Source: an uncultured Planctomycetia bacterium (lineage in GTDB: Bacteria; Omnitrophota; Gorgyraeia; Gorgyraeales; Gorgyraeaceae). Taken from it: DNA of 64,000 nt. The translations under genes and the position numbers were made by a program. Positions 5,011 to 61,698 of this stretch are shown here, piece after piece (within the stretch, counting starts at the first letter, position 1; each line of letters starts with the position of its first letter). The DNA lies in the NCBI GenBank assembly GCA_964415355.1, contig CAYPYS010000001.1:1361-65360 (forward strand). Direction: 5' to 3'. The notes under the pieces are model-generated. The model did not search any database and had not been told where the DNA came from. It was given only the letters and a program-made list of their open reading frames with translations.

Positions 5011-5048
5011 TAACTTTACATTTCAACAACGTTAAAATGTAAAGTTAG
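5011..5048. repeat. 39-bp repeat, copy 3 (orientation A: ...CATTTCAACAACGTTAAAG...)
   Basis: It lies between queC (stop inside the repeat) and queE. Confidence 0.9.
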
Positions 5049-10480: not shown

Positions 10481-10521
10481 CTTAACTTTACACTTTAACA
10501 TTGTTGAAATGTATACTTAAG
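10481..10521. repeat. 39-bp repeat, copy 8 (B, variant right arm GTATACTTAAG)
   Basis: It contains the hycI stop. Confidence 0.85.
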
Positions 10522-10944
10522 CTTGTCCAGGGCAGCTCTGACCTCTGGGCTCAGGTCCTGGCCAAACTTATTCGACCCAGGCCTTATGCCTAGCACGTAG
10601 ATCTTTGCGTCAGTGGAGGATTTTAAATATTGTATCAAAAGCTTGGGAGACATATCATGAGTAGATATCTTGCCTACCCTTAGGTCATCTCCTGAAAAAA
10701 GCCTTATATCTCCTGGCTTGCCGTCAAAATATACAGCATCGACTATGACAATGGTGTCCGGATCAAGCCTCTTTATGACCCCTGTGTAATTTTCAGGCGC
10801 AACTCCGGCGTCTATTACCTTGAAATTGACCTTGTCCTTTATCTCGCTGGCTAAACGCGGGCCTACCCCATCGTCTCCGCGGTCCCTATTACCAAGACAA
10901 AGCAAGACGCTTTTTTCTTTCAAGATATCTTTTAAATTTACCAT
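10495..10944 (-). CDS. hycI: hydrogenase maturation endopeptidase (HycI/HyaD family)
   Basis: LLCLGNRDRGDDGVGPRLA...IVIVDAV is the conserved protease pattern. The gene lies at the 3' end of the hydrogenase operon. Confidence 0.8.
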   Translation of the reverse strand: MVNLKDILKEKSVLLCLGNRDRGDDGVGPRLASEIKDKVNFKVIDAGVAPENYTGVIKRLDPDTIVIVDAVYFDGKPGDIRLFSGDDLRVGKISTHDMSPKLLIQYLKSSTDAKIYVLGIRPGSNKFGQDLSPEVRAALDKLKYTFQQC

Positions 10945-10951
10945 AAATCTT

Positions 10952-11554
10952 CTATGTATTTAGGGTGATTTCTCTTCGACACTTTGGACAGAGGATGTTT
11001 ATGCGGTCCTGGCGAGTCAAGCCTTCCGGCTTTACGATCTTAAGGTATGCTAATTTGAGCTCTTTTAACGCAGATAGGTATGAAGTGGGGCTAGAATACG
11101 CGAGAGGGCCTAGTTTTTTCGTAACCCATATCAAATGCTCTTTTGCTCCTACCATGCATCCGCAAGCCTCGCATAATACTAGTTCTTTCTCGACTGAATT
11201 TATCGCCTCGTGCCTGTCAAAGACAGACAGGTCATCTAATTTATTGGTCTGCTTTACGCCTTCTTTGGTAATGCATGCGGCCTGACATTGCCCGCAGAAT
11301 ATGCAGCTATCATAATGTATCTCAAGTCTCCGCTTAGGTGCATCTGAATCAATGTCATCTGTCTGCTTTATGCAGCCTGTGGTACAGACCTCGTAACATG
11401 CGCCGCAACCCACGCATTCTTTATCATTGTAAACAGGCTGGCCCCTGTACCTCTTTTCAGGCACGTGCGGCTTAAAAGGAAACTTCGACGTATAAGGTCC
11501 TGCTATCAACGCCTTTATCGCCTCGACCAATTCTCGTAATTTTGGATAACGCAT
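10952..11554 (-). CDS. group 4 hydrogenase 2x[4Fe-4S] subunit (NuoI/HycF/MbhN-like)
   Basis: Two CxxCxxCxxxC motifs are present (CVGCGACYEVC and CIFCGQCQAAC). Position in the operon supports the assignment. Confidence 0.7.
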   Translation of the reverse strand: MRYPKLRELVEAIKALIAGPYTSKFPFKPHVPEKRYRGQPVYNDKECVGCGACYEVCTTGCIKQTDDIDSDAPKRRLEIHYDSCIFCGQCQAACITKEGVKQTNKLDDLSVFDRHEAINSVEKELVLCEACGCMVGAKEHLIWVTKKLGPLAYSSPTSYLSALKELKLAYLKIVKPEGLTRQDRINILCPKCRREITLNT

Positions 11555-11565
11555 ATTTTCCCCAC

Positions 11566-11604
11566 CTAACTTTACATTTCAACAACGTTAAAGTGTAAAC
11601 TTAG
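11566..11604. repeat. 39-bp repeat, copy 9 (A)
   Basis: It lies inside the hydrogenase operon, between the MrpG-like and NuoI-like genes. Confidence 0.9.
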
Positions 11605-11921
11605 GAATTCTTGTACTCGTCTATTACGCTCTTCTCCCAGAGCTTCACGCCTGACTTGTACGCGGCTCGAGCCAGCGCGTGCGCAGATACAGGAGAAGTC
11701 AATATCAAAAATCCCGCGCACAGAAGCGCCTTCATGCCTGTTGCCGTAAATCCGCTTATAAGAAACGCCCCGAACAAGATGCTGCACGTCCCAAGCGTTA
11801 TACACTTGGTAGCTGCCTGTAAACGATTATAAACATCCGGCAGCCTCACCAGGCCCAGGCACCCCACAAAATCAAAGAAAAGACCAACTGATATAAATAT
11901 TAAGCCTATTATATCAATCAT
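11601..11921 (-). CDS. Mrp antiporter subunit G-like (MnhG/MbhC-like)
   Basis: RLPDVYNRLQAATKCITLG matches the MrpG signature. Confidence 0.7.
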   Translation of the reverse strand: MIDIIGLIFISVGLFFDFVGCLGLVRLPDVYNRLQAATKCITLGTCSILFGAFLISGFTATGMKALLCAGFLILTSPVSAHALARAAYKSGVKLWEKSVIDEYKNS

Positions 11922-12291
11922 CCAATGACTTCCCTTCTAAAAATTTAGCCAGAGCGAGCGTTGCTATAAAGCTCTGCAGCGCCCACGCAATCGCAATATC
12001 TATATACCAGCTCCTGCCAGTAGAAATACCCATTATGACGCAAAAACCTACTATCAAAACTCCCAGCATATCCAGCGTCACTGCCCTGTCAGCTGAAGTC
12101 GGCCCTCTCAATATCCGATACAGACAAAGAAGACATGCGAATAAAAGAATATAAAACCCTCTGCTCAAAAATCCCGCAAAAGGCAGGCCTTTGTAAAAAA
12201 GAATGGGCAAGGGCCTTGAGAGGATCGCTGCCATTACAACCACGATTAAAATAACGCCAAAAATATAACCAGTATTGCCCTTTTTCATCAT
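11914..12291 (-). CDS. Mrp antiporter subunit F-like (MnhF/MbhB-like)
   Basis: Small polytopic membrane protein with the RILRGPTSADRAVTLD motif. Confidence 0.65.
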   Translation of the reverse strand: MMKKGNTGYIFGVILIVVVMAAILSRPLPILFYKGLPFAGFLSRGFYILLFACLLCLYRILRGPTSADRAVTLDMLGVLIVGFCVIMGISTGRSWYIDIAIAWALQSFIATLALAKFLEGKSLDD

Positions 12292-12782
12292 TCGAATATC
12301 TTTTTCAAGATCCTTTCAAATCTCTCCACGATAACTTTTGTCGCCTTTTCAACATCCCTCTCTTTTACCTCGATCCAATGCACGTACAGGAACCCATTTT
12401 CCTTGTCAACGTCTACGGTAAGCGTGCCAGGAGTCAGAGTGATAGAATTGGCTAGAAAAGTAAGCGCAGTGTCTGACTTAAGACCCGTCTTGACCTTAAC
12501 TATGCCGGGATGAATAGGCAGCTTTGGATGAAGCACTCTGCATGCCACGTCTATGTTGGCTTTAATGCATTCCCACGCGAAAATAGGCACATAATAGAAA
12601 AACCACATATACCTTCCTGCGTGCGTAAGAAGATGCGCGCGCCTTATAAAGAAATCACCTGTCAGGAAAACAACAAATGCTGACACAAAAACGCCTATGA
12701 CCATATGCTGCCAGTCAGGCACCCAGTTTAGCAATGCCCACGCCAGAAAACCAAGTATGAATAAGATGATCCTGTTTTTCAT
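12288..12782 (-). CDS. Mrp antiporter subunit E-like (MnhE/MbhA-like)
   Basis: MnhE-like; the core region matches the family. Confidence 0.65.
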   Translation of the reverse strand: MKNRIILFILGFLAWALLNWVPDWQHMVIGVFVSAFVVFLTGDFFIRRAHLLTHAGRYMWFFYYVPIFAWECIKANIDVACRVLHPKLPIHPGIVKVKTGLKSDTALTFLANSITLTPGTLTVDVDKENGFLYVHWIEVKERDVEKATKVIVERFERILKKIFE

Positions 12783-14281
12783 TGCCTCAATGCCCCAAAA
12801 ACCACAGTTACATAATCTTTGCCTGTCAGCACTGCGTCTTCAGCGACTTTTAGAAAATCACTATAAACCATTGGCAATAGCATAACTCCGCCTACTATGC
12901 AGATAATCGCCAGCACCACCATTGAAAACTTCATGAAAAACGGCACTTCCTTTACCTTGCTCAGCTTTTCTTTTAATTCTCCGAGAAAACCATATCTCTG
13001 GACTTTCATGAAGGAAGCTAGCGTCAATATGCTCGCCAGTACGGCCCATGCCGCATAACCAAAATGATTGGCCTGAACGCACGCGACAATGATAATAAGC
13101 TTGCTCCAGAATCCATTAAAAGGCGGAATGCCCGCGATAGACATAGACGCGATCATGCTCGTACCTGCCGTGACAGGCATGCGCTCTTTAAGCCCGCCCA
13201 TCTTTTGCAGGTCCCTTGTCCCCGTGGAATATTCGACTGCTCCTGAATTTAAAAACAAAAGAGACTTAAACACTGAATGATTAAATAAATGAAACAAACC
13301 TCCTAAAATCCCGAGCGGCGTGCCCAGGCTAATGCCAAGCACGACATATCCTATCTGGCTCACAGAATGATACGCAAGAAGCCTCTTAAAGTCCCACTGC
13401 CCCAGCGCAAGACACACGCCAATGATCATAGACAGCGCGCCAAGCATCATAAACACACTCAACACCTCGCCGGTCACCCCTATGACGCTGAAAAATATCC
13501 TAATGAGCGCGTATACGCCTAGGGATTTAATAAGAATGCCTGACAGCATCGCGGATATAGGGGCTGGCGCAGAAGGGTGCGCATCAGGAAGCCATGCATG
13601 AAAAGGAACCAGGGCTGCCTTCAGTCCAAAACCCATTAAAAAGAAAACACTGGCCAGGAGCACAATAGAGGAGCTCCCTTTATCGATAAGTTCCATTGAC
13701 ATATCAGCCATATTCAACGTAGAGGTATAACTATACATAAATACAATGCCCAATAATATAAAGGAAGAAGCAACCGTGCCCATAACCGCATACTTAAATG
13801 ACGCCTCGAGCTCTTCCTGCTCAGTTCCAAATGCGACAAGCGCGTAACTCGCGATAGCAGCGATCTCAAGAAAAACATACATGTTAAACATGTCGCCGCT
13901 TATCACCACGCCGTTCATGCCAGCGACCACCAATAAGAAAAGACAATAAAAAACCCACTTTTCAGTGAATTTCTCCATATAGTTAATGGAGTATACGCTG
14001 ATTAAAAACGCGATCAGGTTCACAGTGACCAGCATAAGCACTGTGAGCCCATCCATGACCATTGATATCCCGATAGGCGGCAGCCAGCCACCGACTTTAT
14101 ATACAATCACGCCGCTCTCTTTAAATAAAAATATAGAATATATCGATATAACAGCGAGCGCAAAAGTCGCCACGCCAGACAATATATCCGAAAGCCCTTT
14201 TATCTTCTTCCCAATAAGGGAATTCAGAAACGCGGCGCCGAGCGGTATTATAATGAATAATGGCAATAAATGCTGGGTCAT
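12779..14281 (-). CDS. proton-translocating antiporter-like subunit (MrpD/NuoN/MbhH-like)
   Basis: 500-aa protein with ~14 TM segments. FHAWLPDAHPSAPAPISAML is the conserved complex-I antiporter motif. Confidence 0.8.
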   Translation of the reverse strand: MTQHLLPLFIIIPLGAAFLNSLIGKKIKGLSDILSGVATFALAVISIYSIFLFKESGVIVYKVGGWLPPIGISMVMDGLTVLMLVTVNLIAFLISVYSINYMEKFTEKWVFYCLFLLVVAGMNGVVISGDMFNMYVFLEIAAIASYALVAFGTEQEELEASFKYAVMGTVASSFILLGIVFMYSYTSTLNMADMSMELIDKGSSSIVLLASVFFLMGFGLKAALVPFHAWLPDAHPSAPAPISAMLSGILIKSLGVYALIRIFFSVIGVTGEVLSVFMMLGALSMIIGVCLALGQWDFKRLLAYHSVSQIGYVVLGISLGTPLGILGGLFHLFNHSVFKSLLFLNSGAVEYSTGTRDLQKMGGLKERMPVTAGTSMIASMSIAGIPPFNGFWSKLIIIVACVQANHFGYAAWAVLASILTLASFMKVQRYGFLGELKEKLSKVKEVPFFMKFSMVVLAIICIVGGVMLLPMVYSDFLKVAEDAVLTGKDYVTVVFGALRQ

Positions 14282-14285
14282 ACGA

Positions 14286-14624
14286 TTAACCTTTTAGCTT
14301 TCGTATCTTCGTAATGTCGAACGTGCCGTATTTCTCATACACCCTCATCGCAATCGCCGCTATAAGAGCAGTAACTGCAAGCCCTATGACTATAGCGGTC
14401 AGGACCAATGCCTGCGGAAGAGGGTCTACCATGTCAATTACTGTCTGGTCAGGAGAATGGATCGGCGCGCGGCCATTCATCTTGTAGCCCACAAGAATAA
14501 AAAACAGGTTCACAGCGTATTCCACTATGGCTATGCCTATAATGATCTTTATAAGATTCCTCTTTCTGAGGATACAATAAAGACCTACGCAAAAAAGTAT
14601 TAGACAAAGAAAATAAACGCTCAT
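14286..14624 (-). CDS. Mrp subunit C / NuoK-like membrane subunit
   Basis: 112-aa protein with 3 TM segments, NuoK/MnhC-like. Confidence 0.65.
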   Translation of the reverse strand: MSVYFLCLILFCVGLYCILRKRNLIKIIIGIAIVEYAVNLFFILVGYKMNGRAPIHSPDQTVIDMVDPLPQALVLTAIVIGLAVTALIAAIAMRVYEKYGTFDITKIRKLKG

Positions 14625-15106
14625 TTCTCTTCAGACCCTCTATCGATTCTCAAAAGCACAAGAGTAACCACTATAATAAACAGTCCCGAGCCTACTTTAA
14701 AGGCGATCGCAATATTGGATAAAGGTATCAGGCCAGAGCTAAAAAGCCTGAAAAGTTCTCCCTTGGCTGCAAAATTCAAAAAGAAATATCCGCCGGTTGC
14801 CAGCCCAAGGATACCAATGGTAATAAACATTATCGCGCCCAAGCTCTCGAAAAATGAAGCTACCTTCTGGTCCACTTTTTTAAAAGCTGCTTCTTTTCCG
14901 AACGCCAGCATGATGTGTATAAAAGAGAGCGCTATGATCACGCCACCTGCGAATCCGCCGCCAGGGCTTATGTGGCCGTGCGCGACGATGTACACGCCGA
15001 AAAGCAGTATCAGTCCCACTGTCAACCGCGTGATCGTCTTTACTATTAGTGTCATTCCCTTTTCTTGCTCTCTCATAAAACTGCCCCTAACTTTACTTTT
15101 CAACAA
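14621..15106 (-). CDS. Mrp subunit B-like (MnhB domain)
   Basis: MnhB-like (HGHISPGGGFAGGVIIA). Confidence 0.65.
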   Translation of the reverse strand: MLKSKVRGSFMREQEKGMTLIVKTITRLTVGLILLFGVYIVAHGHISPGGGFAGGVIIALSFIHIMLAFGKEAAFKKVDQKVASFFESLGAIMFITIGILGLATGGYFFLNFAAKGELFRLFSSGLIPLSNIAIAFKVGSGLFIIVVTLVLLRIDRGSEEK

Positions 15107-15125
15107 TGTTAAAATGTAAAGTTAC
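15087..15125. repeat. 39-bp repeat, copy 10 (A-like variant)
   Basis: CTAACTTTACTTTTCAACAATGTTAAAATGTAAAGTTAC lies between Mrp genes inside the operon. Confidence 0.85.
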
Positions 15126-15640
15126 TTCTTTCTGCCTACCCGCCGCATTACGGCGAGAACTCCGATCACGGCCGTAAAGAGGATCGTGGCCTCTCCCAAA
15201 GTATCATATGCCCGGTAATCCAGGACAACCGAGCTCACCAGGTTGGTCGCGCCTGTCTCTCTCATGCCGTGCGTTAAATAATTATGCGCTACTTTCATTA
15301 TTGGCTTGCCAAACTCCGGCAGGCCCTTTAAGCAATAATATCCAAAGGCCAAAAACGCGCCTATAAATATAAAAGCTATGATCGTATTAAAGAACCAGCG
15401 TCCGCTCGTAGAAAAAGGTAAATCTCTTTTGATGGTCGCCCTTATCAATATAATCACGCACAATATCTCGACCACGAGCTGAGCCATAGCCAGGTCCGGC
15501 GCCTTCAATATCAGAAACGCGAGTGACAGCCCAAGCCCTACCACGCCAACCGCAATAACAGAGGACAAAAGATCCTTGGCGTGCACAGCGATCAACGCGC
15601 CGACTATCATGAATATTAAAAGTATGTTTAACTCAAGCAT
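15122..15640 (-). CDS. MrpA C-terminal / MnhB-related membrane subunit (MbhD/E-like)
   Basis: The polytopic protein ends in ...GATNLVSSVVLDYRAYDTLGE, which is MnhB-domain-like. Confidence 0.55.
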   Translation of the reverse strand: MLELNILLIFMIVGALIAVHAKDLLSSVIAVGVVGLGLSLAFLILKAPDLAMAQLVVEILCVIILIRATIKRDLPFSTSGRWFFNTIIAFIFIGAFLAFGYYCLKGLPEFGKPIMKVAHNYLTHGMRETGATNLVSSVVLDYRAYDTLGEATILFTAVIGVLAVMRRVGRKK

Positions 15641-15651
15641 GTCTCATAACC

Positions 15652-17439
15652 TCACATCACGATAACGAAAAAGAACACCAGCATCCCCAGGATACACCAG
15701 GCCAGATACGTGGGCAATACGCCATTATGCAAATACCTGAATATACCTATAAAGAAAAACACGAGTCTTTTGCCCTGGTCGTAAATATCAAAAACCTTTC
15801 TCTCTGCCTTGGCATAAATGCTTCTAAGGAACGGCAGCTCCTTTATTGTACCATAAAATTCTGTGCCGGAAAGTCTCATATCTTTTCCGGTCTCTTCCCC
15901 GCCTATATAGCAATCCGTCTCTCTAACGCCTTTAAAATTACCCAATAAATAAATCAAAATACCAGCGCCAAGGCCTACAACTAAATAAAATGTGGCGCGC
16001 AGGGACGGCCAGCTTCCGACAAAACCAAACCTCTCGGTCAGCGCAGGCAATACAAGATATTTCAAAGGAATTACATAGGCGAACACGCCAAAGACGATAC
16101 AAAGAACCGCCAGGATCACCGGAGGAAGCCACATGGTCCAATGGACTTCATCGCGCTGGCCTGTCTGTCCATCTTTAGATTTACCTAAAAATATCGCGTG
16201 TATGAATTTTATGAATGACGCGAGGGTCAGGCCGCTCCCGAACATCGCTGCTATTATGCAGAATATCCACAGCGCCCCTCCGGACTTCCCGCTCTCTACC
16301 AAACCTTGATAAACCATCCATTTTGAAAAAAATCCGTTAAAAGGCGGCACGCCGGATATCGCGAACGAGGAAACCAGCGTCGTAAAAAATGTCACTGGCA
16401 TAATTTTTGCGAGACCACCTAGAGAATCGAGATCCGATGTCTTTGCCTTATGTTCTACATTGCCGCCTGATAAAAATAAGCAACTTTTGTATATCGCGTG
16501 ATTGATCATATGAAAAAGCCCGCCTGCTATGCCTATAGGATTCCCGGTGCCAATGCCGAGCACCATGTAACCTACCTGGCTCACCGCGTGATAACCCAGG
16601 AGTTTTTTGAAATCGTGCTGCACGAGCGCCATCATAACAGCCGCTATTATAGTGACAGCACCCACCACCATCAGAATAGCGTGGCAAAGCGCGTTCAATA
16701 TAAATATGTGGAGAACCAATCTTGCCAATAAGTAAATGCCTAGAAGTTTATCAAGGCTGGCTGGTAAAAATGCTGTCACCGGCATAGGCGCGTCTTTTGC
16801 TGTATCTGGTATCCAGGAATGAAAAGGCATGGCCCCTGCCTTTGCAAGCGCTCCTATTGTTATCAATAAAAATGCCCAGAAGGCCTGAGGATTATCTACG
16901 GCGATCTTTATATTACTCAGGCTCATATTGCTTGTAATAAGCCACATGAGCGCAAAGCCCAGGACCATGAGGCTGTCTGAGCCGCCTATTATAATAAAGG
17001 TCTTTTTGCTCGTGGCTGCTGCCTTTGGCCCAGATATGTTGATCAACATATAAAGCGTAAAACCCAAAAGGCCCCACGCCACAATAAGCAGCGCCATGTT
17101 ATTGGAAATCGCGGCTAGTATCGAAAGGCCTATGGTCCATATTGTATACGCGTAATACGAGCGCAGCTCTCTGTACGCTGACATAAAACGTAGCGAATAC
17201 ACTGTCACAAGCGCGCCAAAGAATCCCACGCCAATCACGATAAACCTGGAAAGGCCGTCTAAGTATAAAAATTCCCCCTGATACTGCGCCAGAAGAAATA
17301 TCCTAACGCAAGCCGCTGACAGATATATAGAGGTAACAACGCTAAAGCCCTCTATCACCCTCTTCAGCTTTTTAGGGATCAAGAAAATCACGCATCCCGC
17401 GAGTATCGATATTATTATCGGCTGCAATAAAACCTTCAT
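15652..17439 (-). CDS. NuoL/MrpA/HyfB-like antiporter subunit
   Basis: 595 aa. FHSWIPDTAKDAPMPVTAFL is the NuoL-type motif. Confidence 0.8.
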   Translation of the reverse strand: MKVLLQPIIISILAGCVIFLIPKKLKRVIEGFSVVTSIYLSAACVRIFLLAQYQGEFLYLDGLSRFIVIGVGFFGALVTVYSLRFMSAYRELRSYYAYTIWTIGLSILAAISNNMALLIVAWGLLGFTLYMLINISGPKAAATSKKTFIIIGGSDSLMVLGFALMWLITSNMSLSNIKIAVDNPQAFWAFLLITIGALAKAGAMPFHSWIPDTAKDAPMPVTAFLPASLDKLLGIYLLARLVLHIFILNALCHAILMVVGAVTIIAAVMMALVQHDFKKLLGYHAVSQVGYMVLGIGTGNPIGIAGGLFHMINHAIYKSCLFLSGGNVEHKAKTSDLDSLGGLAKIMPVTFFTTLVSSFAISGVPPFNGFFSKWMVYQGLVESGKSGGALWIFCIIAAMFGSGLTLASFIKFIHAIFLGKSKDGQTGQRDEVHWTMWLPPVILAVLCIVFGVFAYVIPLKYLVLPALTERFGFVGSWPSLRATFYLVVGLGAGILIYLLGNFKGVRETDCYIGGEETGKDMRLSGTEFYGTIKELPFLRSIYAKAERKVFDIYDQGKRLVFFFIGIFRYLHNGVLPTYLAWCILGMLVFFFVIVM

Positions 17440-18632
17440 CTATTCTTCCTTAACTTACGTGAGCGTCTCAAACGCTCTGTCTTTTCCTGGGAAAGCCGGA
17501 GAAGATCCTGGCCATCCATGATCTTCTTGCCTGTCTTGTGATCTACAACAGCGGTTCGCTCTGTGCAGCAATAACACGGGTCCACTGCCGCGAGTATTAT
17601 AGTTGCGTCGGAAATCGTATGTCCCACCACTGCCTTTTTGTTCGAGGCTACATTCATATAGCTCGGTGCCCTGACTTTATGACGAGCAGGGCTGTTACCG
17701 CCGTCTGACATAATGTAGTGAAATACCTCGCCGCGCGGCGCCTCGTGCCTGCCAATGCCCTCTCCTACAGGCATGTCCTTTATATTAAGGTCTATTTCGC
17801 CTTTCGGCATCTTATCTAGACATTGCAAAATAATATTGATCGACTCATAAAGCTCCAATATTCTCACGACTGCCTTTGCGAATACGCCGCCGCCTTCCTG
17901 CGTGATCACCTTCCAGTCTACCTTATCATACGCCGCATACGGATCATCTCTTCTCACATCAATGCTCACGCCTGACGCCCTCGCAGTAGGCCCGACTACA
18001 GAATAATCATGTACATCCTGCCTTGTCAATGCGCCAATGCCCTCTGTCCTCGCTCTTATCACAGGGTCATCGATAACCGCTCCTTTAAACATGTCGACTT
18101 TCGGGATCAGACCCTTAAGCATCTTTCTGATCCACGGAAAATCTGCTTCATCCATATCCCTTCTTACGCCGCCTGGCTTGAACATTGCGTAGTGCTGCCT
18201 GTTGCCTGTGACCCTTTCAAAGATATCCAGCACCGGCTCTCTATATTTCCACGCCCACATCCACACAGTATTGTAACCCAAAAAGTGCCCTGCGAGTCCA
18301 ACCCACAAAAGATGACTATGCACCCTCTCAAGTTCACCTATAATAGTGCGGATATAAAGCGCTCTCTCAGGGACCTGGACCCCCAAAAGATCATCGATCG
18401 CGTTAGTATACGCAAAAGGATGCGAGGTAGAACAGATCCCGCAGATCCTCTCCACTAAAAACGTGACCTGGTCATAACTCTTGGACTCCGCTATCTTCTC
18501 GATAGTCCTATGGTTATATCCGATCTCTATATCCATATCCACTACTGTCTCACCGTCCACGTGCAATTTAAAAAATTCCGGCTCTTCCTGCAGCGGGTGA
18601 TATGGGCCTATTGGTATGATCTTATGCGACAT
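17436..18632 (-). CDS. [NiFe] hydrogenase large (catalytic) subunit, group 4 (NuoD-like; MbhL/EchE/HycE-like)
   Basis: The N-terminal Ni-Fe ligand motif RICGICSTSH and the C-terminal DPCYCCTERTAVVDH are both present. A ~34-aa C-terminal extension follows, consistent with HycI processing. Confidence 0.9.
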   Translation of the reverse strand: MSHKIIPIGPYHPLQEEPEFFKLHVDGETVVDMDIEIGYNHRTIEKIAESKSYDQVTFLVERICGICSTSHPFAYTNAIDDLLGVQVPERALYIRTIIGELERVHSHLLWVGLAGHFLGYNTVWMWAWKYREPVLDIFERVTGNRQHYAMFKPGGVRRDMDEADFPWIRKMLKGLIPKVDMFKGAVIDDPVIRARTEGIGALTRQDVHDYSVVGPTARASGVSIDVRRDDPYAAYDKVDWKVITQEGGGVFAKAVVRILELYESINIILQCLDKMPKGEIDLNIKDMPVGEGIGRHEAPRGEVFHYIMSDGGNSPARHKVRAPSYMNVASNKKAVVGHTISDATIILAAVDPCYCCTERTAVVDHKTGKKIMDGQDLLRLSQEKTERLRRSRKLRKNR

Positions 18633-19067
18633 CTACTGGTCTCTCCTTAGGGGATAATTTTCCTTTGGCCAATCGTCTTTCAACAAAAGGTGTGTCAGGT
18701 TCGGATGCCCCTTGAAATTCACGCCTAACAATTCGTGTATCTCTCTTTCTATCCACTCAGCGCACTTTATTATAGAGGTAAGGCTTTCCGCTTCAAGATT
18801 GGGCTTATCCAATATTATTCTCAACGAAACAATAAGCCCTATTTCATCGATTGAAAAATGATAAAGTATCTCTATCGCCTTTCTTGTGTCAACGCCAGAG
18901 GCTGTCGAAAACCTGGCCTTGACGTCGCTAAAAAGATACTTTGCTATCTTGGGTAATATCTCTTTTTTGATAGTTACATAGACGCGTTTTTCTGACCTGT
19001 CATTCAAATCCAAGAGGTCTTTCCCAGCGCGCACCTTTATATTCTCTATTATCTCGAGTCTTTTCAT
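18633..19067 (-). CDS. NuoC-like (30-kDa) hydrogenase subunit (MbhK-like)
   Basis: Complex I 30-kDa domain (EREIHELLGVNFKGHP). Confidence 0.75.
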   Translation of the reverse strand: MKRLEIIENIKVRAGKDLLDLNDRSEKRVYVTIKKEILPKIAKYLFSDVKARFSTASGVDTRKAIEILYHFSIDEIGLIVSLRIILDKPNLEAESLTSIIKCAEWIEREIHELLGVNFKGHPNLTHLLLKDDWPKENYPLRRDQ

Positions 19068-19489
19068 TTCTTTCCTGTAAGCTTTCCTATTAATTTAACA
19101 ATACCTGCTATCATCGCCTCTGGCTTAGGCGGACATCCTGGAATATAGATATCTACCGGAAGCACTGAATCAACGGGATATGGCGTATTTGGCCCGTTCG
19201 CAAAAATCCCCTGACCGCAAGAGCATGCGCCGATTGCGATCACCACGCATGGCTTTGGGGCCTGCTCATAAACAGCCTTTACTCTCGGTATTGTCTTCAG
19301 ATTCAGGGCACCTGTCACAAGTATGGCGTCAGCATGCTTCACGCTCCCCACAAGCATTATGCCGAATCTTTCGACGTCGAAGCGCGGAGTCAAAAGATCC
19401 AGTATCTCTATGTCGCAATTATTGCAGCTGCCTGTCGAAAGGTGATACACCCAGATCGATTTTGTTAATGCCTTTAGCTTTAAACTCAT
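19064..19489 (-). CDS. [NiFe] hydrogenase small subunit, NuoB-like (MbhJ/EchC-like)
   Basis: CNNCDIE...GACSCGQGIF...GCPP gives the proximal 4Fe-4S ligands. Confidence 0.85.
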   Translation of the reverse strand: MSLKLKALTKSIWVYHLSTGSCNNCDIEILDLLTPRFDVERFGIMLVGSVKHADAILVTGALNLKTIPRVKAVYEQAPKPCVVIAIGACSCGQGIFANGPNTPYPVDSVLPVDIYIPGCPPKPEAMIAGIVKLIGKLTGKK

Positions 19490-19512
19490 GCTCTTCTTTA
19501 GTTCAACTGCTC

Positions 19513-19550
19513 CTAAGTTTACACTTTAACGTTGTTGAAATGTAAAGTTA
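19513..19550. repeat. 39-bp repeat, copy 11 (B)
   Basis: It lies between the NuoH-like and NuoB-like genes. Confidence 0.9.
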
Positions 19551-20453
19551 CATCCCCATCGTAGCCAGTATAACTGCGATTATAGCTATAGCTGTCATCT
19601 TTCTCCAGAAAAATCTCACTGCCTGATCTATCCTCACGCGAGGATTCGTGTTCCTGATTAAAGTTATCAGCACCAGTAACACAACGTACTTCCATATGCT
19701 AAAACCACCCCACAGTATCGTGATCAAAAATACTGGCAACGCGACCAGCATCATTGTCTTTGTAAGTTTTAATATTGCAAGCAATATCCCCGAGTATTCT
19801 ATCTGTATTCCTCCCATTATCTCTGTCTCTGCTTCTGCCATATCAAAAGGCACAAGGCCTAGTTTTGCCTGCATGCAGAATATCGCTACCAATAGCGCCA
19901 GGATCCCGGAAAAACTTGCGACAAAAGACCCGTTTGCTGCCTGATAGGCGATAAGTTGCTCAAACCTCAGAAATCCGCCACTCTTAATGATCGGGATAGT
20001 AAATATTATAATAAACGGCAATTCATAAGCCAGGAGAAGCTTGATCTCTCTCGATATGCCCACGGATGCAAGCGGATTGCCGCTGGAAGACGCGCCTATT
20101 ATCAGGGCGATCGCCGGCAAGGTCAATAGATATAAGACGACTATCATGTCACCCGTAAAACCATTGCTCCCTATATTTAGATTGGGCAGCCATATAAAGG
20201 TAGAGGCCAATATGACCGCGCTGAGTCCGACTAAAGGCGAAAGCATAAATGTAAGCTTTGAGGCACCGCGCGGCACAGTGATCTCTTTTATACTCAGTTT
20301 CACCAGGTCAATAAACGGCTGATACCATGGCGGGCCCACTCTCCACTGGACGCGCGCTGTGACCTTGCGGTCGATCCAGCTCGCCACCAGGCCAATGGCC
20401 GCCGTAAAAATAAAACCTGGGAATATCAGGAAATTAAATAAATTTTTTACCAT
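19548..20453 (-). CDS. NuoH-like membrane subunit (MbhM/HycD/EchB-like)
   Basis: WIDRKVTARVQWRVGPP is the NuoH signature. Confidence 0.8.
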   Translation of the reverse strand: MVKNLFNFLIFPGFIFTAAIGLVASWIDRKVTARVQWRVGPPWYQPFIDLVKLSIKEITVPRGASKLTFMLSPLVGLSAVILASTFIWLPNLNIGSNGFTGDMIVVLYLLTLPAIALIIGASSSGNPLASVGISREIKLLLAYELPFIIIFTIPIIKSGGFLRFEQLIAYQAANGSFVASFSGILALLVAIFCMQAKLGLVPFDMAEAETEIMGGIQIEYSGILLAILKLTKTMMLVALPVFLITILWGGFSIWKYVVLLVLITLIRNTNPRVRIDQAVRFFWRKMTAIAIIAVILATMGM

Positions 20454-20459
20454 AATCCT

Positions 20460-20942
20460 CTACGGGTGGTACTTTTTCCACTGTTTCGCGTGAACCGCGA
20501 TCCTGTCACTTACCAGATGTATGTCGTCTTTTTCCGATTCCTTTACCTCTATATACTTTGCCGCGCCTTCAATGGAGCAGGTCCTTGTGCAGAGCGGTGC
20601 TTCTTTGTCAGCCCTGTCTATGCATGCGTCGCATTGCGAAATAATATAAGGCACTGTCTCGATAGGGATCACTCCAAACGGACACGCGTGACTGCAAGAC
20701 TTACAGGATATACAGCGCATAGTGTAGCGCTTTACCACGCCGTCCTCTTGTTTCTCGAGTGCATCTTTCGGGCAAGCGTTAACGCACGGCGCATCCTCGC
20801 ACCTCCTGCATATATGCAAAAATTGCGCGATCTCTCTCAGGCGAGTCACGCCGTCATTTTCAGGGTGGTAGTAGTAGCTGCACTCGGCCGTAGGCCGCTC
20901 GCAACTATACAATTTCTCAACATCTATCAGCAATTTCTTCAT
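20460..20942 (-). CDS. 4Fe-4S dicluster ferredoxin-type electron-transfer subunit (HycB/CooF-like)
   Basis: Several Cys clusters are present (CRRCEDAPCVNACP, CISCKSCSHACP). The start is moved past the repeat-derived MLKCKVRRGE extension. Confidence 0.65.
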   Translation of the reverse strand: MKKLLIDVEKLYSCERPTAECSYYYHPENDGVTRLREIAQFLHICRRCEDAPCVNACPKDALEKQEDGVVKRYTMRCISCKSCSHACPFGVIPIETVPYIISQCDACIDRADKEAPLCTRTCSIEGAAKYIEVKESEKDDIHLVSDRIAVHAKQWKKYHP

Positions 20943-20952
20943 CTCACCCCTC

Positions 20953-20991
20953 CTAACTTTACATTTCAACAACGTTAAAATGTAAAGTTAA
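20953..20991. repeat. 39-bp repeat, copy 12 (A)
   Basis: It lies between the AsrB-like gene and the ferredoxin gene. Confidence 0.9.
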
Positions 20992-21000: not shown

Positions 21001-21825
21001 CTAATCCCAAATCTCATGGATATTGCTTATCTTGTCATAACTAAACACGGGCCCGTCTTTGCACACATAATAATCCCCAAGCCTGCAATGCCCACATTTA
21101 CCAAACCCGCAGCTCATGTTTTTTTCCATTGACAGATATATCTGTTTCTCTTTATAGCCTATATCGATCAACTTGAATGTCGCAAACTTCATCATTATAG
21201 GCGGACCGCACACCACTGCGACGCTATTCTTCAGATTGATTTTCAATTTATCCAAAGTAGTCGTTACAAGTCCTACCTTACCCTTCCACGCATCATCCTT
21301 CTTATCGACTGTGACCCTGAAATCAACCCTCTTGTCTATTTTCTGCCATTTATCTAATACATTATCTTTGTAGATCATATCAGACGGCGTCCTGGCTCCG
21401 CAGCAAAAGGTTATACCTTTATATTTATTCAGGTCGTGGACCAACGCCAGGAATAAGGCTCGAAGCGGTGCCAACCCCACGCCTCCTCCTACAAGCAGGA
21501 TCTCCTTGCCCTCAAATTCATTAAGAGGATACTCAACTCCATACGGACCTCTCAGCCCCACTGTATCGCCTTTTTTCAAATCATGTATCTTAGAAGTCAC
21601 TCTCCCGACATTCATGACAGTAACTTCCAGTTTGCTCTTTTGATGAGGCGATGATGAAGGAGTAAACGGCGCTTCGCCCAAGCCGGGGATAGTCATCTCG
21701 ATAAACTGGCCTGCCTTAAAGTGTAAAGGTTTCTCGGTCTTGAACGATAAAGTCTTGATAGTAGGGCTTTCCTTTACAACGTCCACTACTTCGCTCTTTA
21801 TAGGTATATAAGGGTTTTCTATCAT
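21001..21825 (-). CDS. FAD/NAD(P)-binding oxidoreductase subunit with C-terminal [2Fe-2S] (AsrB / sulfhydrogenase gamma / PyrK-like)
   Basis: A ferredoxin-reductase fold is followed by CGFGKCGHCRLG. Confidence 0.7.
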   Translation of the reverse strand: MIENPYIPIKSEVVDVVKESPTIKTLSFKTEKPLHFKAGQFIEMTIPGLGEAPFTPSSSPHQKSKLEVTVMNVGRVTSKIHDLKKGDTVGLRGPYGVEYPLNEFEGKEILLVGGGVGLAPLRALFLALVHDLNKYKGITFCCGARTPSDMIYKDNVLDKWQKIDKRVDFRVTVDKKDDAWKGKVGLVTTTLDKLKINLKNSVAVVCGPPIMMKFATFKLIDIGYKEKQIYLSMEKNMSCGFGKCGHCRLGDYYVCKDGPVFSYDKISNIHEIWD

Positions 21826-22841
21826 AGCTTACTCAGAACTTCTTGAATTTTTATTTTACCAGGACACGCATCCGAACACCTGCCGCAACCAGTGCAGCCA
21901 AATCTTCCGATAAAGTTAGGAAAAAAATTAAATTTCTTATCAAATCGGTTCCTAAGGCGCTGCGCTAACAATTTTCTTGGATTTGCGTTCCCCGCGACCC
22001 TTGCAAAGGACATCAGGAGACAGGAGTCCCATAATCTCAGCCTCTCAAAGGCCTCTTCCGTCGGCTGGTCTTTTAAAATAAAACAATGGCATGCCGGACA
22101 GATCACGTTGCAGGCACCACACTCAACGCAGGTCTTGGAAGTCTCTTCCCAGAGGTTCGAATCAAAGCTTTTCTTAAAACGATTCTGGATAGACTCTTTG
22201 GCCGGTATCTTTTTTTTGTGCACATGTTCTATCAATGCCTCTTTCAGCTTCCTTCTCGCCTCTTCTTTTCTTTCTATATAAAGATCCGCTGTCTGGAACA
22301 GCTTGGCGTAATCTCTTATTATTTTTTCCCCTTTTTCAGAACCCACCTCTGCCACATAGCCGCTTCCCATCTCTGACAGGTTCATGTCAAAATCTTCGGT
22401 GGGATACGGCATTATGCCCAGGCCAACACAAAAACAACTGTCGCCGAAAGACCCGCAGTCACTGGAAATCACAAGGCCTTCTTCTCTCTGAGCGATATAA
22501 AACGGGTCCTTAAAAGATTCCTGCTTAAACACATAGTCCATCACTTTCAACGAAGCCAGGTCACATGACTTCGCGCCGATTATAGCTACAGGCCTGGATC
22601 TTTTCCCAGATATTTTTTCAGTAAAGTAATCGCCTACTTTTGCTCGGGCAGGAAAATAAAAACTTTTTATGCTCTGGACAGAACGAAATTCGCCGATGAT
22701 AGCATCCCCAAGCCCTTCGTCGCCCATCTTTTTATAATGTCTATGCTCGCCTGATTTTACAGGTAAGTAGACTCTATATGCCTTGGAAAGGGATCTGACT
22801 AATCTATCGAGGTTGGGTCTGTTTATGAAATACTTGTCCAA
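21822..22841 (-). CDS. 4Fe-4S subunit (AsrA / sulfhydrogenase beta-like)
   Basis: CVECGACNVICPACHC and CTGCGRCSDACP motifs are present. The gene overlaps the AsrB-like gene. The start is TTG with AAGG 9 nt upstream. Confidence 0.65.
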   Translation of the reverse strand: MDKYFINRPNLDRLVRSLSKAYRVYLPVKSGEHRHYKKMGDEGLGDAIIGEFRSVQSIKSFYFPARAKVGDYFTEKISGKRSRPVAIIGAKSCDLASLKVMDYVFKQESFKDPFYIAQREEGLVISSDCGSFGDSCFCVGLGIMPYPTEDFDMNLSEMGSGYVAEVGSEKGEKIIRDYAKLFQTADLYIERKEEARRKLKEALIEHVHKKKIPAKESIQNRFKKSFDSNLWEETSKTCVECGACNVICPACHCFILKDQPTEEAFERLRLWDSCLLMSFARVAGNANPRKLLAQRLRNRFDKKFNFFPNFIGRFGCTGCGRCSDACPGKIKIQEVLSKL

Positions 22842-22865
22842 GAAAAACCTTTTAGCAGTGTGAAT

Positions 22866-22883
22866 TTGTGAAAATTATCACAA
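22866..22883. promoter_or_regulatory. perfect CRP/FNR-family type palindrome TTGTGA-N6-TCACAA, 25-42 nt upstream of the first gene of the hydrogenase operon
   Basis: TTGTGAaaattaTCACAA is read directly from the sequence. It matches the CRP consensus half-sites TGTGA/TCACA with a 6-bp spacer. Confidence 0.5.
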
Positions 22884-22961
22884 GATTTTGAAAATAAAAA
22901 AAACGAATTAGCCTAAATTATAAAGTCAAAGCTTCTGACTGTCAAGAAAAAAATAACTTTA

Positions 22962-23026
22962 TGTCATTCCCGCGAAAGCGGGAATCCATAATTTCTCTAG
23001 ATTCCCGTTTGCACGGGAATGACAAT
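22962..23026 (-). terminator. two GC hairpins (GTCATTCCCGCGAAAGCGGGAAT and its inverted variant) followed on the minus strand by a U-rich tract; putative terminator after the ferredoxin gene
   Basis: The stems ATTCCCGC/GCGGGAAT and ATTCCCG/CGGGAAT are read directly. GTTATTTTTTTC follows on the transcribed strand about 9 nt after the second stem. Confidence 0.4.
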
Positions 23027-23033
23027 AAATGCT

Positions 23034-23455: not shown

Positions 23456-23494
23456 CTAACTTTACATTTCAACAACGTTAAAGTGTAAAGTTAG
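23456..23494. repeat. 39-bp repeat, copy 13 (A)
   Basis: It lies between the UPF0280-like gene and the ferredoxin-NIL gene. Confidence 0.9.
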
Positions 23495-24233: not shown

Positions 24234-24272
24234 CTAACTTTACATTTCAACAACGTTAAAGTGTAAAGTTAG
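24234..24272. repeat. 39-bp repeat, copy 14 (A)
   Basis: It lies between hypA and the UPF0280-like gene. Confidence 0.9.
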
Positions 24273-26917: not shown

Positions 26918-26930
26918 ATATATTTCCTTT

Positions 26931-26953
26931 GTCATTCCCGCGGAAGCGGGAAT
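26931..26953. repeat. GC-hairpin repeat GTCATTCCCGCGGAAGCGGGAAT (copy 3 of 4)
   Basis: The stem TTCCCGC/GCGGGAA has a GRAA loop. It lies 13 nt upstream of the hypC start. Confidence 0.8.
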
Positions 26954-26964
26954 CTATATCTCGT

Positions 26965-27002
26965 TTAACTTTACATTTTAACGTTGTTGAAATGTAAAGT
27001 TA
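26965..27002. repeat. 39-bp repeat, copy 15 (B)
   Basis: It lies between hypF-C and hypC, next to GC hairpin copy 3. Confidence 0.9.
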
Positions 27003-28107
27003 AAACTGCCTGGCCAAGCGCGATGCCGCCGTCGTGCGTTGGAACCCTGTCGTGCAAATACAGCTCGAACCCTGCTGTTTCCAAAATAGGTTTAATGTGG
27101 CTTACCAGGAACTTATTCTGAAACACCCCTCCGCTCAAACAAACTTTATTTATTTTATATTTTTTTCTAAGCAATTCACAAACATCCTTTATCATATGAC
27201 AAACTGCATTATGAAATTTCAATGAGATTTCTGTCTTGCTTTTTTTGTTCTGCAGATCTTTAACAATACCTTTGATAAGAAGTTCCCAGTCTATAATAAT
27301 CTTATCTTTGTCTATATACTTAAATTTATAGAACTCATTGCCGAGGCCTCCTTTTATCGACCTCTCTAATTCTATCGCTGCCTGGCCTTCATACCCTGCA
27401 ACGCTGCAAACTCCTATAATCGAGGAAACTGCATCAAAAAGCCTGCCAATACTTGAAGTCAAAGGCGAATTTATTCTTTTTTCTATGGCTTGGATCAAAA
27501 GATTGACTCTTCTTTTGTCCTGCTTCTTCAAAAAATCTATCTTCAAAGTCTTGAAGCCTGGACCAAATACACTATAAAGATAACTCAAGCCCATTCGCCA
27601 AGGCTCTCTGATCGATGCCTCCCCTCCTGGCATAGGCAGATATTTTAAATGAGCTGTCCTCTTGAATCCTTTTATATTACCTATAAAAAACTCTCCTCCC
27701 CACGCCTCTCCGTCAAGACCAAAACCTGTCCCGTCAAAAGATACGCCTATAACGTCTCCCTTGACGTTGTTATCGACTATGCAGCTGGCTATATGGGCCT
27801 CGTGATGCTGGATCTGTTTTATCCCGCATCCTCCGCGTCTCATAATGTCTTTTGCTAACTTAGAGGAAATATATTCAGGATGCAGATCGCATGCGACGAT
27901 ACCTGGTTTAATCTTCAATTTTCTCTGCAAAGATTTTATGTTCTTCTCAAAAACATTCAAATCTTCCAGACTACTTAGATCTCCTCCGGAACGCGACAGA
28001 TACATAGCCCTGCCCCTGGCAAAGCAAAAGCTACTTTTTGATTGAGCGCCTAATGCGAGAATATTAGAGCTTATTTTACGCAATAAATTAATTTTGATAT
28101 AATTCAT
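26971..28107 (-). CDS. hypF: HypF-like carbamoyltransferase, Kae1-like C-terminal domain only (no acylphosphatase, Zn-finger or YrdC domains)
   Basis: ILALGAQSKSSFCFARG...DLHPEY...QIQHHEAHIAS...GVSFDGTGFGLDGEAWGGEF matches the HypF C-terminal domain. The start is moved to MNYIKI past the repeat-derived MLKCKLRCSLQ. Confidence 0.7.
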   Translation of the reverse strand: MNYIKINLLRKISSNILALGAQSKSSFCFARGRAMYLSRSGGDLSSLEDLNVFEKNIKSLQRKLKIKPGIVACDLHPEYISSKLAKDIMRRGGCGIKQIQHHEAHIASCIVDNNVKGDVIGVSFDGTGFGLDGEAWGGEFFIGNIKGFKRTAHLKYLPMPGGEASIREPWRMGLSYLYSVFGPGFKTLKIDFLKKQDKRRVNLLIQAIEKRINSPLTSSIGRLFDAVSSIIGVCSVAGYEGQAAIELERSIKGGLGNEFYKFKYIDKDKIIIDWELLIKGIVKDLQNKKSKTEISLKFHNAVCHMIKDVCELLRKKYKINKVCLSGGVFQNKFLVSHIKPILETAGFELYLHDRVPTHDGGIALGQAVLTLHFNNVKM

Positions 28108-28120
28108 TTGCAGCGAGCAC

Positions 28121-28159
28121 CTAAGTTTACACTTTAACATTGTTGAAATGTAAAGTTAG
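28121..28159. repeat. 39-bp repeat, copy 16 (B)
   Basis: It lies between the MetE-like gene and hypF-C. Confidence 0.9.
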
Positions 28160-29190
28160 GATAAATTATCTTTTGCCAGCCTGGAGACAATAGAGAGTTT
28201 TTTGATTATAACCTCTGTAAGATCCTGAGAAAGAGTTCCCATCCCACAACTAGGCGTGATTAAAGAGCGGGATATCAATAAATCCCGCGGAATGCCTTTT
28301 CCTTCCAATTTTCCTATTTCTGACGACAGTTTCTGAAAAAGAGAATCCTCTGAGTCCTTTAAAGCTGCTTCGGAAGTGGGAATCTGGCCCCACGCAAGAT
28401 AACCGCCTCTTTTTAAAAATTTCGTTATCTCTCCCGGATACAGCGAAAGCCCTTCGGCATAAGAATAGGCGTCAAAATTTATAATATCCACGTTCGTCTC
28501 TGCGAGAAGCGACCAGTCTGTATTGCCGCAGCAGTGAATACCGCTCAAGGCCCCTTTCGAATGAACCTTATCTATGAGGGCATTCAGCATCAATACGATA
28601 TCCTTCCTCTCAATGTTTACAAAGCTAGAGCCAAAACTAGTAAGGTACGGCTCGTCTATAAATATAATAATATTTTTAAAAACACTGCTCAACTTGTCTA
28701 TTTGCCAGGAAGTCTTTATCTCCAGAAGCTTGACCAGGGCATCTCTAAGCGTCTCGTTATATATGATAGACCTCCCTTTTTCGTCAACAACGCTAAGGCC
28801 AAAACTAACAGGGCCTGTAACATGGCCTTTTACATAACCGGGATTAAATTCTCTGGCAATATCCATAAACGCATAGAGCCCTTCTGCGATATCCTTTGAA
28901 AGACCAAGTGGGTCGTAATTATTGGACATATAGACTTCATACAGCTTGCCCAGGTCCTCGCTTAGATCTTTAGTGCTGTCAACATATATCCTTCTATTCT
29001 CTGCATCTATAACCAGCGACGGCAAACCATTGGCAAACTGGACATACATGTTCTCTTTAAAACCTCTCTTTGGAAGTTGAGGCCAAAATGGTATGTCGAA
29101 TTTAGCGCACGTAATCCTAGCGCTTTCCGAGGCATCGGTATACGGTAAGCTTCCTATTCCAGTTGTGAGAAATTTTCCTTTTATCTTCAT
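28156..29190 (-). CDS. cobalamin-independent methionine synthase (MetE) catalytic-domain-like / UroD-superfamily protein
   Basis: TTGIGSLP is the MetE C-domain start motif. IFIDEPYL and HCCGN motifs follow. The protein is 344 aa. Confidence 0.5.
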   Translation of the reverse strand: MKIKGKFLTTGIGSLPYTDASESARITCAKFDIPFWPQLPKRGFKENMYVQFANGLPSLVIDAENRRIYVDSTKDLSEDLGKLYEVYMSNNYDPLGLSKDIAEGLYAFMDIAREFNPGYVKGHVTGPVSFGLSVVDEKGRSIIYNETLRDALVKLLEIKTSWQIDKLSSVFKNIIIFIDEPYLTSFGSSFVNIERKDIVLMLNALIDKVHSKGALSGIHCCGNTDWSLLAETNVDIINFDAYSYAEGLSLYPGEITKFLKRGGYLAWGQIPTSEAALKDSEDSLFQKLSSEIGKLEGKGIPRDLLISRSLITPSCGMGTLSQDLTEVIIKKLSIVSRLAKDNLS

Positions 29191-47921: not shown

Positions 47922-47945
47922 ATGTCATTCCCGCGAAAGCGGGAA
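47922..47945. repeat. GC-hairpin repeat ATGTCATTCCCGCGAAAGCGGGAATCCATAA (copy 4 of 4; 31 nt identical to the copy at 22961-22991)
   Basis: Read directly from the sequence. It lies between the MscS-like gene start and the GT9 gene end. Confidence 0.8.
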
Positions 47946-47948
47946 TCC

Positions 47949-47985
47949 ATAAAATGCCTAAGCTTACTTTCAACAATGTTAAATG
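47949..47985. repeat. 39-bp repeat, copy 27 (degenerate, A-like)
   Basis: CTAAGCTTACTTTCAACAATGTTAAATGTAAACTTAG lies next to GC hairpin copy 4. Confidence 0.75.
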
Positions 47986-57372: not shown

Positions 57373-57411
57373 CTAACTTTACATTTCAACAACGTTAAAG
57401 TGTAAAGTTAG
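57373..57411. repeat. 39-bp repeat, copy 30 (A)
   Basis: It lies between the GAF histidine kinase gene and pilB. Confidence 0.9.
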
Positions 57412-58604: not shown

Positions 58605-58616
58605 ATATTCGTCATC

Positions 58617-58655
58617 CCTAACTTTACACTTTAACGTTGTTGAAATGTAAAGTTA
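58617..58655. repeat. 39-bp repeat, copy 31 (B)
   Basis: It lies between the first RR gene and the GAF kinase gene. Confidence 0.9.
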
Positions 58656-59027
58656 GGTCTTCTTTGTGTAAAATTTTATCTTGTCTATCAGTTCTTCCGC
58701 GTCAAAGGGCTTAGCTATAAAATCTGATGCTCCAACGTCTTTAGCTTCTTTTGGACAAGAATCTTGGCAAAGTCCTGCAGAAAATAATATTATAGGTATA
58801 TCCTTTGTTTCAGGAGTTACTTTTAATTTCTTGCACACCTCATAGCCGTGCATAACTGGCATAAATAAATCCAAAAGTACAATATCGGGTTTTGTCTCTT
58901 TTGCCTTATAAAGTGCACTTAGACCATCATACGCACAAGTAACTTCAAAACCATTGGACTCGAGCCTTGCCTTTGTAACCTCTATTATGTCCTTCTCGTC
59001 ATCCACTAATAACACTTTTGTCTTCAT
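58653..59027 (-). CDS. single-domain response regulator (REC only)
   Basis: KVLLVDDE...LLDLFMPVMHGYEV is a CheY-like receiver. Confidence 0.85.
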   Translation of the reverse strand: MKTKVLLVDDEKDIIEVTKARLESNGFEVTCAYDGLSALYKAKETKPDIVLLDLFMPVMHGYEVCKKLKVTPETKDIPIILFSAGLCQDSCPKEAKDVGASDFIAKPFDAEELIDKIKFYTKKT

Positions 59028-59398: not shown

Positions 59399-59418
59399 AA
59401 CACCCTCTCTTTATGCCG

Positions 59419-59457
59419 CTAACTTTACATTTCAACAACGTTAAAATGTAAAGTTAG
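59419..59457. repeat. 39-bp repeat, copy 32 (A)
   Basis: It lies between the RR2 and RR3 genes. Confidence 0.9.
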
Positions 59458-59461
59458 GCTA

Positions 59462-61363: not shown

Positions 61364-61378
61364 GACTATCCCATCTAC

Positions 61379-61649: not shown

Positions 61650-61698
61650 GATCCCCTCCAGCCTCGATACAATAAGCTATTTAGTGAGCTATATAACT

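Follow-up and report, generated by a model that had tools for sequence, protein, structure and literature searches.

The operon for a membrane-bound [NiFe] hydrogenase in an uncultured Omnitrophota bacterium carries in its leader a perfect 18-bp inverted repeat, which is a genuine, strongly conserved element and points to a protein-binding operator, the protein being in all likelihood a redox-responsive regulator. Comparison with orthologous loci points, with good confidence, to the NADH/NAD+-sensing repressor Rex. The evidence comes from a 64-kb stretch of DNA, hereafter the window, and from the corresponding loci of near and distant relatives. A rex gene in this lineage, the existence of which is suggested by the conservation of the operator and by the rex-linked orthologous operons, would lie outside the 64-kb window.

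The repeat, TTGTGAAAATTATCACAA on the plus strand at 22866-22883, is made up of two 6-nt arms, TTGTGA and TCACAA, separated by a 6-nt spacer. All the genes of the operon region, like nearly all those of the window, are encoded on the minus strand, and the leader is therefore read as the reverse complement; on this transcribed strand the repeat is TTGTGATAATTTTCACAA (22883-22866). A first-pass annotation of this DNA had described a perfect TTGTGA-N6-TCACAA palindrome at the head of a hydrogenase operon, centred about 34 nt upstream of the first start codon and in a leader devoid of a 39-bp element that is otherwise widespread. This description proved accurate, down to the exact coordinates: the first ORF of the operon starts with a TTG at 22841, the centre of the palindrome (22874.5) lies 33.5 nt upstream of it, and the 192-bp gap at 22842-23033 contains no copy of the 37-39 nt repeat.

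A search for further sites, which the same annotation had proposed, showed that the palindrome is the only TGTGA-N6-TCACA in the window. Dinucleotide shuffling of the window (n=100) yielded a mean of 0.04 such sites, with a single site in 4 of the 100 shuffles. Taken on their own, a lone site in the window and its occasional appearance in shuffled DNA could be read as the mark of a chance palindrome with no function. This reading is so improbable as to be negligible, since comparison with relatives refutes it: the site is kept amid a diverged background in 19 of 20 of the close ones, and 592,750 bp of orthologous loci contain 26 perfect TTGTGA-N6-TCACAA sites, against none in 30 first-order Markov simulations.

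Measured against the Rex operator consensus, TTGTGAA-N4-TTCACAA (PMC2883068; PMC6391272, citing Ravcheev 2012), the palindrome matches 13 of the 14 specified positions, including all 12 positions of the TTGTGA/TCACAA core, and it has one mismatch to TTGTGAANNNNTTCACAA. The T at position 7 is shared with the footprinted Streptomyces Rex operator, TTGTGATACGGTTCACGA (PMC5355995). The FNR-type core TTGAT-N4-ATCAA is absent from the palindrome. When up to three mismatches to the Rex consensus were allowed, the window gave 4 matches, where 3.86 were expected; since this number is close to expectation and the other three matches are intragenic or poor, no regulon is visible within the 64 kb. A third copy of the TTCACA half-site (ATTCACAC) is present at 22861-22870, 3 nt past the right arm of the operator. 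It is unique to the window, missing in relatives, and probably due to chance.

The position of the palindrome in the leader bears directly on its likely mode of action. The leader begins downstream of a NIL-ferredoxin gene, the stop codon of which is at 23034 on the minus strand. A promoter consensus scan of the leader found one promoter-like site, on the gene strand and with 12 of 12 matches, which is the only perfect TTGACA-N17-TATAAT in the window and constitutes a predicted sigma-70 promoter (22917-22945, minus strand; -35 at 22945-22940 and -10 at 22922-22917). Transcription is predicted to start near 22909. A T-rich tract, TTTTTTTTATTTT (22891-22903, minus strand), then separates the -10 from the candidate Rex-type operator (ROP, 22866-22883), which begins 33 nt downstream of the -10 and would span about +27 to +44 if transcription starts near 22909. 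The 24 nt between the palindrome and the start codon, ribosome-binding site included, contain no promoter-like hexamers. A Shine-Dalgarno-like AAAAGG (22848-22853, minus strand) lies 6 nt before the TTG start of the first operon gene, also on the minus strand, and relatives have a GAAAGG-type sequence in the same place. Since the palindrome lies downstream of a consensus promoter, its position suggests repression and not activation.

Two other symmetrical elements occur in this leader. The near-palindrome GTCAAAGCTTCTGAC at 22929-22943, which the first-pass annotation had singled out as a second element, does exist; it is imperfect (5 of 7 pairs) and falls inside the 17-nt promoter spacer, the sequence of which differs in all relatives, and we therefore rejected it as a conserved element. 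Between the upstream gene and the promoter, and so outside the operator, is an inverted pair of GTCATTCCCG-N6-CGGGAAT hairpin repeats (22958-23029), further copies of which occur at 26930-26955 and 47923-47950 (family D7). Searching 22958-23029 against Rfam gave only sub-threshold matches to WsnRNA46 (E = 2e-4) and FtrB (E = 0.01), well short of the gathering cut-offs, which probably arise from similar repeats inside those sRNA models.

[quoted passage not shown] According to Pfam, the gene order from 22841 down to 10495 is Fer4_22, FAD/NAD(P)-binding, Fer4_11, NuoH-, NuoB-, NuoC- and NuoD-like, followed by antiporter-like subunits, MbhD/E, MnhB, Mrp D/E/F/G, a ferredoxin and the HycI maturation protease. 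The first gene (21822-22841, minus strand) encodes a 339-aa 4Fe-4S protein (Fer4_22) that, judged by Pfam and its homologues, is like the beta subunit of sulfhydrogenase. The second (21001-21825, minus strand; FAD_binding_6, NAD_binding_1, DHODB_Fe-S_bind) encodes an FAD/NAD(P)-binding subunit with a 2Fe-2S motif, similar to the sulfhydrogenase gamma subunit and presumed to be the link of the operon to NAD(P)H. The remaining genes, Fer4_11 through the HycI protease, were assigned by Pfam and occupy 10495-20972 on the same strand; among them, the NuoD-like gene (17436-18632, minus strand) encodes the [NiFe] large subunit, with the ligand motifs RICGICSTSH and DPCYCCTER. With a [NiFe] hydrogenase and an FAD/NAD(P)-binding subunit, the target belongs to NAD(H)-linked energy and redox metabolism. 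[quoted passage not shown]

Upstream of the operon lie maturation genes in the order hypF (C-terminal part)-C-D-E-A. The hypF gene (26971-28140) codes only for the Kae1-like C-terminal half (389 aa), and the 344-aa ORF that precedes it (28156-29190) has no Pfam match and is unlike the usual acylphosphatase/zinc-finger/YrdC N-terminal half; a relative (L201) has the same arrangement. This 344-aa ORF and one of 243 aa, both upstream and taken as Pfam-less, were considered as regulator genes and rejected, neither being DNA-binding-like; the 243-aa product is ApbE-like (PF27030).

An alignment of the protein encoded by the first gene was used to scan species-representative genomes for orthologous loci, of which 80 were returned. 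Twenty of these make up the window clade (L003 and L004 come from one assembly, L004 being its second contig). The palindrome precedes the orthologous gene in 19 of the 20 (L001-L018 except L016, plus L029 and L030), with 17 perfect sites and two carrying one mismatch, and the flanking leader DNA has diverged. Indeed, in an alignment of 21 leader sequences, the conserved columns form only four blocks, corresponding to the -35, an extended -10, the T-tract and the palindrome, so that the module reads, in order, cTTGACA, TtTGTATTATAnT, T-tract and TTTGTGA-N6-TCACAA(A). Counted from the -10, the site begins after 30-36 nt in 18 of the 19 loci (33 nt in the window), the exception being L030 with 10 nt. 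The spacing between site and start codon, in contrast, is anywhere between 17 and 165 nt across the close relatives, owing to other repeats inserted in L005, L006 and L012. A fixed distance to the -10 combined with a variable distance to the start codon ties the element to the promoter and not to the ribosome-binding site.

These data also bear on whether the palindrome acts in the RNA. It lies in a predicted transcribed leader, where a hairpin with a 6-bp stem and 6-nt loop is possible, and it might thereby affect stability, processing or translation of the message. We consider such a role very improbable. The predicted fold of the leader is weak (-6.5 kcal/mol, z = -0.81), with 37 of 200 shuffled sequences folding equally well; both arms keep their sequence and show no compensatory changes, the two one-mismatch variants (TCACTA and TCACGA) being altered in a single arm. 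Spacing to the ribosome-binding site varies, Rfam has no matching family, and the same sequence precedes unrelated genes in unrelated phyla. Invariant arms that do not covary, a weak hairpin and the lack of an Rfam family together indicate a DNA operator.

It is similarly doubtful in the extreme that the sequence owes its conservation to a secondary promoter overlapping the palindrome, regulator or not. On the minus strand, TGTGATAAT resembles the extended -10 TGnTATAAT, and the T-tract upstream of it is like the spacer of the rex-linked promoters described below. Four relatives, however, have TTGTGATTTTTTTCACAA and no GATAAT hexamer, and they keep both arms. There is, moreover, no -35 element at a suitable distance, and conservation of the right arm would be left unexplained.

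In the sister clade (L019-L028 and L031), the same operon (66-71% identity) follows the same NIL-ferredoxin gene. Here the palindrome is absent; the promoter and T-rich leader are present, and the leader is shorter. The operator must therefore have been gained or lost within the family.

The identity of the regulator is suggested by more distant orthologues. This distant set comprises 49 loci (L032-L080) from Omnitrophota, Atribacterota and Latescibacterota, 30 of which have a rex gene (209-216 aa) immediately upstream of the Fer4_22 gene; L077, additional to the 30, has a rex fragment only. The linked gene has the domains Put_DNA-bind_N and CoA_binding (PF06971 and PF02629), which is the Rex architecture, and its product aligns over the full length to solved Rex structures (e.g. 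3ikt, E = 2e-46). One such protein (P0121) is named redox-sensing transcriptional repressor Rex by NCBI. Of these 31 loci, 28 have one or two TTGTGA-type sites, located either ahead of rex or in the interval that separates it from the hydrogenase. The commonest form in the rex-linked loci is a tandem pair 21 bp apart, abutting the -10 upstream of rex. Pairs of this kind, 21 bp centre to centre, were seen upstream of rex in L033, L037, L045, L048, L052 and L079 (e.g. TTGTGAAAAGTGGCACAAactCTGTGAACATCGTTACAA), and in the rex-linked Omnitrophota it is the first of the two operators that abuts the -10. Loci from Atribacterota and Latescibacterota have a single site between rex and the hydrogenase gene, which in three Atribacterota (L060, L062 and L065) is the identical 18-mer TTGTGATAATTTTCACAA. 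Several of the distant loci that lack rex have perfect Rex-consensus sites just downstream of the -10, such as TTGTGAATTTTTTCACAA in L059.

We found no rex gene in the 64-kb window, nor within 4-10 kb of the operon in close relatives. Three Rex proteins, used as tblastn queries on the window and every locus retrieved, gave no match for the window clade. A protein search with a Rex from Omnitrophota yielded 7411 matches spread over many phyla, and a relative retrieved with 10-kb flanks had the same synteny and no regulator gene.

The first-pass annotation had ascribed the palindrome to a CRP/FNR/CooA-family regulator. Of that proposal, the conserved operator at the head of the hydrogenase operon stands, as does its most likely response to a redox signal; the family assignment is what the context argues against. 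The palindrome does contain a perfect CRP-type core, TGTGA-N6-TCACA. This core is also common to Rex operators, and the sequence alone cannot therefore discriminate between the two. What favours Rex is the context, namely the presence of rex beside orthologous operons with sites of the same type, the repressor position of the site and the lack of a CRP/FNR gene. Thus, a regulator of the CRP/FNR superfamily (CRP-, HcpR- or CooA-like), activating or repressing in response to cAMP, a redox signal or a gas, appears an unlikely occupant of the site.

The case for such a regulator rests in part on precedent, since the consensus suggested for the CRP/FNR-like HcpR of Desulfovibrio is TTGTGANNNNNNTCACAA, with core and spacing identical to those of the window site, in a set that includes a site upstream of a CO-dependent hydrogenase (PMC545781). 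It also draws on the fact that the rex gene of this genome is postulated, none lying within the 64-kb window. Against it, no gene with cNMP_binding or HTH_Crp domains was found among the window ORFs scanned with Pfam, or among 10 upstream neighbours from 7 of the 17 rex-less orthologous loci examined, which leaves the expectation of a CRP/FNR-family gene nearby unsupported; the regulator gene that co-occurs with this type of site across phyla is rex. Nor does the geometry fit activation: CRP/FNR activator sites are centred near -41.5, -61.5 or similar positions and accompany a weak -35, whereas the window site follows a promoter that matches the consensus at 12 of 12 positions and so requires no activator. 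A Desulfovibrio sat site of this type, part of the HcpR set, was reportedly reassigned to Rex later. Sulfate reduction is listed among the processes regulated by Rex (PMC6391272).

CooA deserves separate mention, since a palindromic operator also precedes the CO-induced coo operons, which encode a group 4 [NiFe] hydrogenase. The palindrome does not match the CooA consensus, TGTCGGCNNGCCGACA (PMC545781), from which its half-site differs, and there is no CO dehydrogenase gene among the window annotations. Furthermore, CooA is an activator that binds upstream of the promoter, unlike the downstream position of the window site.

Assignment to Rex, in contrast, agrees with several features of characterised systems. 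Rex operators of Streptomyces, Staphylococcus, Bacillus and Caldicellulosiruptor are, like the window site, 18-bp inverted repeats with the same half-sites and spacing, located at the promoter of an operon for energy or redox metabolism, or beyond it. Footprinted Rex sites lie within or downstream of promoters, as at cydA1, where protection extends from -3 to +25 (PMC5355995). Hydrogenases, including those of the group 4 Ech type, are documented members of Rex regulons, and the window target is also a hydrogenase; in Caldicellulosiruptor bescii, Rex was shown by EMSA to bind upstream of the group 4 Ech [NiFe] hydrogenase operon (PMC6391272), and Rex control has been predicted for CODH/ECH operons (PMC13077300). 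Autoregulated rex operons, in which rex comes first and is preceded by its own sites (PMC5355995, PMC6391272), resemble the orthologous operons of the distant set.

The present case also differs from known Rex systems. Its host is an uncultured member of the Omnitrophota, and in this clade rex is not encoded at the locus. The operator is single and, at about +27 to +44, unusually far downstream; in the rex-linked operons the site abuts the -10, which the window site follows at a distance of about 33 nt. Finally, unlike known Rex targets, the candidate target operon encodes an Mbh-Mrp hydrogenase that has an NAD(P)-type oxidoreductase module in addition.

Occurrences of the operator outside this gene family are in keeping with targets of Rex elsewhere. 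An exact search of metagenome contigs with the 18-mer returned at least 120 stretches (L081-L200). Among the matches listed, 47 have the 18-mer ahead of atpA, at a distance of up to about 130 nt, and come from genomes with a GC content of 59-74%; 12 place it upstream of the first gene of this hydrogenase (7 of these with rex in the locus). Others among the matches listed precede a NuoE-like 2Fe-2S gene (4), FocA (3), a radical-SAM gene (3) and NDH-2 (1). In Streptomyces, control by Rex has been established experimentally for the atp, nuo and ndh operons (PMC5355995). The atpA-linked sites stand out by their composition, the AT-rich TTGTGATAATTTTCACAA lying 35-130 nt upstream of atpA in at least 47 GC-rich contigs (e.g. 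L088, L094, L116 and L146), and they share the context gTTGC...ggccTTGTGATAATTTTCACAAgctg. This pattern suggests a Rex-controlled internal atp promoter in a GC-rich lineage (59-74% GC).

The results are consistent with a model whereby the strong consensus promoter at 22945-22917 would drive the Mbh-Mrp-oxidoreductase [NiFe] hydrogenase operon under the control of Rex. At a low NADH/NAD+ ratio, a Rex dimer would occupy TTGTGATAATTTTCACAA, approximately 27-44 nt into the transcribed region, and block RNA polymerase. An operator situated some 33 nt beyond the -10 implies that repression would be by roadblock and not by promoter occlusion. Accumulation of NADH would cause Rex to leave the DNA and the hydrogenase to be made, whereupon the FAD/NAD(P)-binding module would allow surplus reducing equivalents to be discharged in the form of H2.

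A T-rich tract (TTTTTtATTTTTT) is kept at the aligned position, between the -10 and the operator, in L001-L018, and is also present in the operator-less sister clade. A similar tract forms the spacer between -35 and -10 of the rex-linked promoters, for instance in L045, L052 and L079, and the T-rich tract may be a relic of an ancestral core promoter. We might speculate that tract and operator together are a remnant of that promoter, to which a new consensus promoter was added upstream. A more radical version, which we regard as improbable, is that an ancestral rex-operator-hydrogenase unit was dismantled in this clade. Here rex would have left the locus, or perhaps even the genome, the promoter would be new and would precede what is left of the old core promoter by some 45 nt, and the operator would be served either by a distant Rex acting as a roadblock to elongation or by another regulator that took it over, for instance one of the CRP/FNR type.

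Rex operators and Rex control of hydrogenases are well known, and the element itself is ordinary; the phylum in which it occurs is little studied. The case illustrates how a palindrome that looks like a CRP site is open to mis-assignment, the same core having once been ascribed to a CRP/FNR-like factor in Desulfovibrio (PMC545781). In Omnitrophota, Atribacterota and Latescibacterota, the Mbh-Mrp-oxidoreductase hydrogenase is consistently accompanied by rex and Rex-type operators. This link across phyla provides a testable clue to the role of the enzyme, in that its expression would be tied to the NADH/NAD+ ratio, as expected of a valve by which these uncultured anaerobes would convert surplus NAD(P)H to H2.

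Several other elements of the window were noted. The most conspicuous is a palindromic element of 37-39 nt, TAACTTTACAyTTyAAC...GTTrAArTGTAAAGTTA, which is present in about 30 copies, in two orientations and in nearly every intergenic gap (e.g. 1598-1634, 5011-5047, 15088-15124, 19514-19550, 20954-20990, 23457-23493 and 24235-24271), including gaps within the hydrogenase operon. The 37-nt repeat pattern had 29 matches in the window, none in the loci of the close relatives that bear the operator palindrome and one in L023. It is nearly confined to the genome of the window, and relatives carry other inserted repeats. Three tRNA genes are encoded on the minus strand at 354-427, 1381-1454 and 1473-1547. 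At the other end of the window, a block of type IV pilus/type II secretion genes (34527-57363) adjoins a response-regulator cluster (57408-62576), in which four single-domain response-regulator genes (58653-60195) are flanked by two histidine kinases, one of them with a GAF domain, and which also holds a double-receiver protein.
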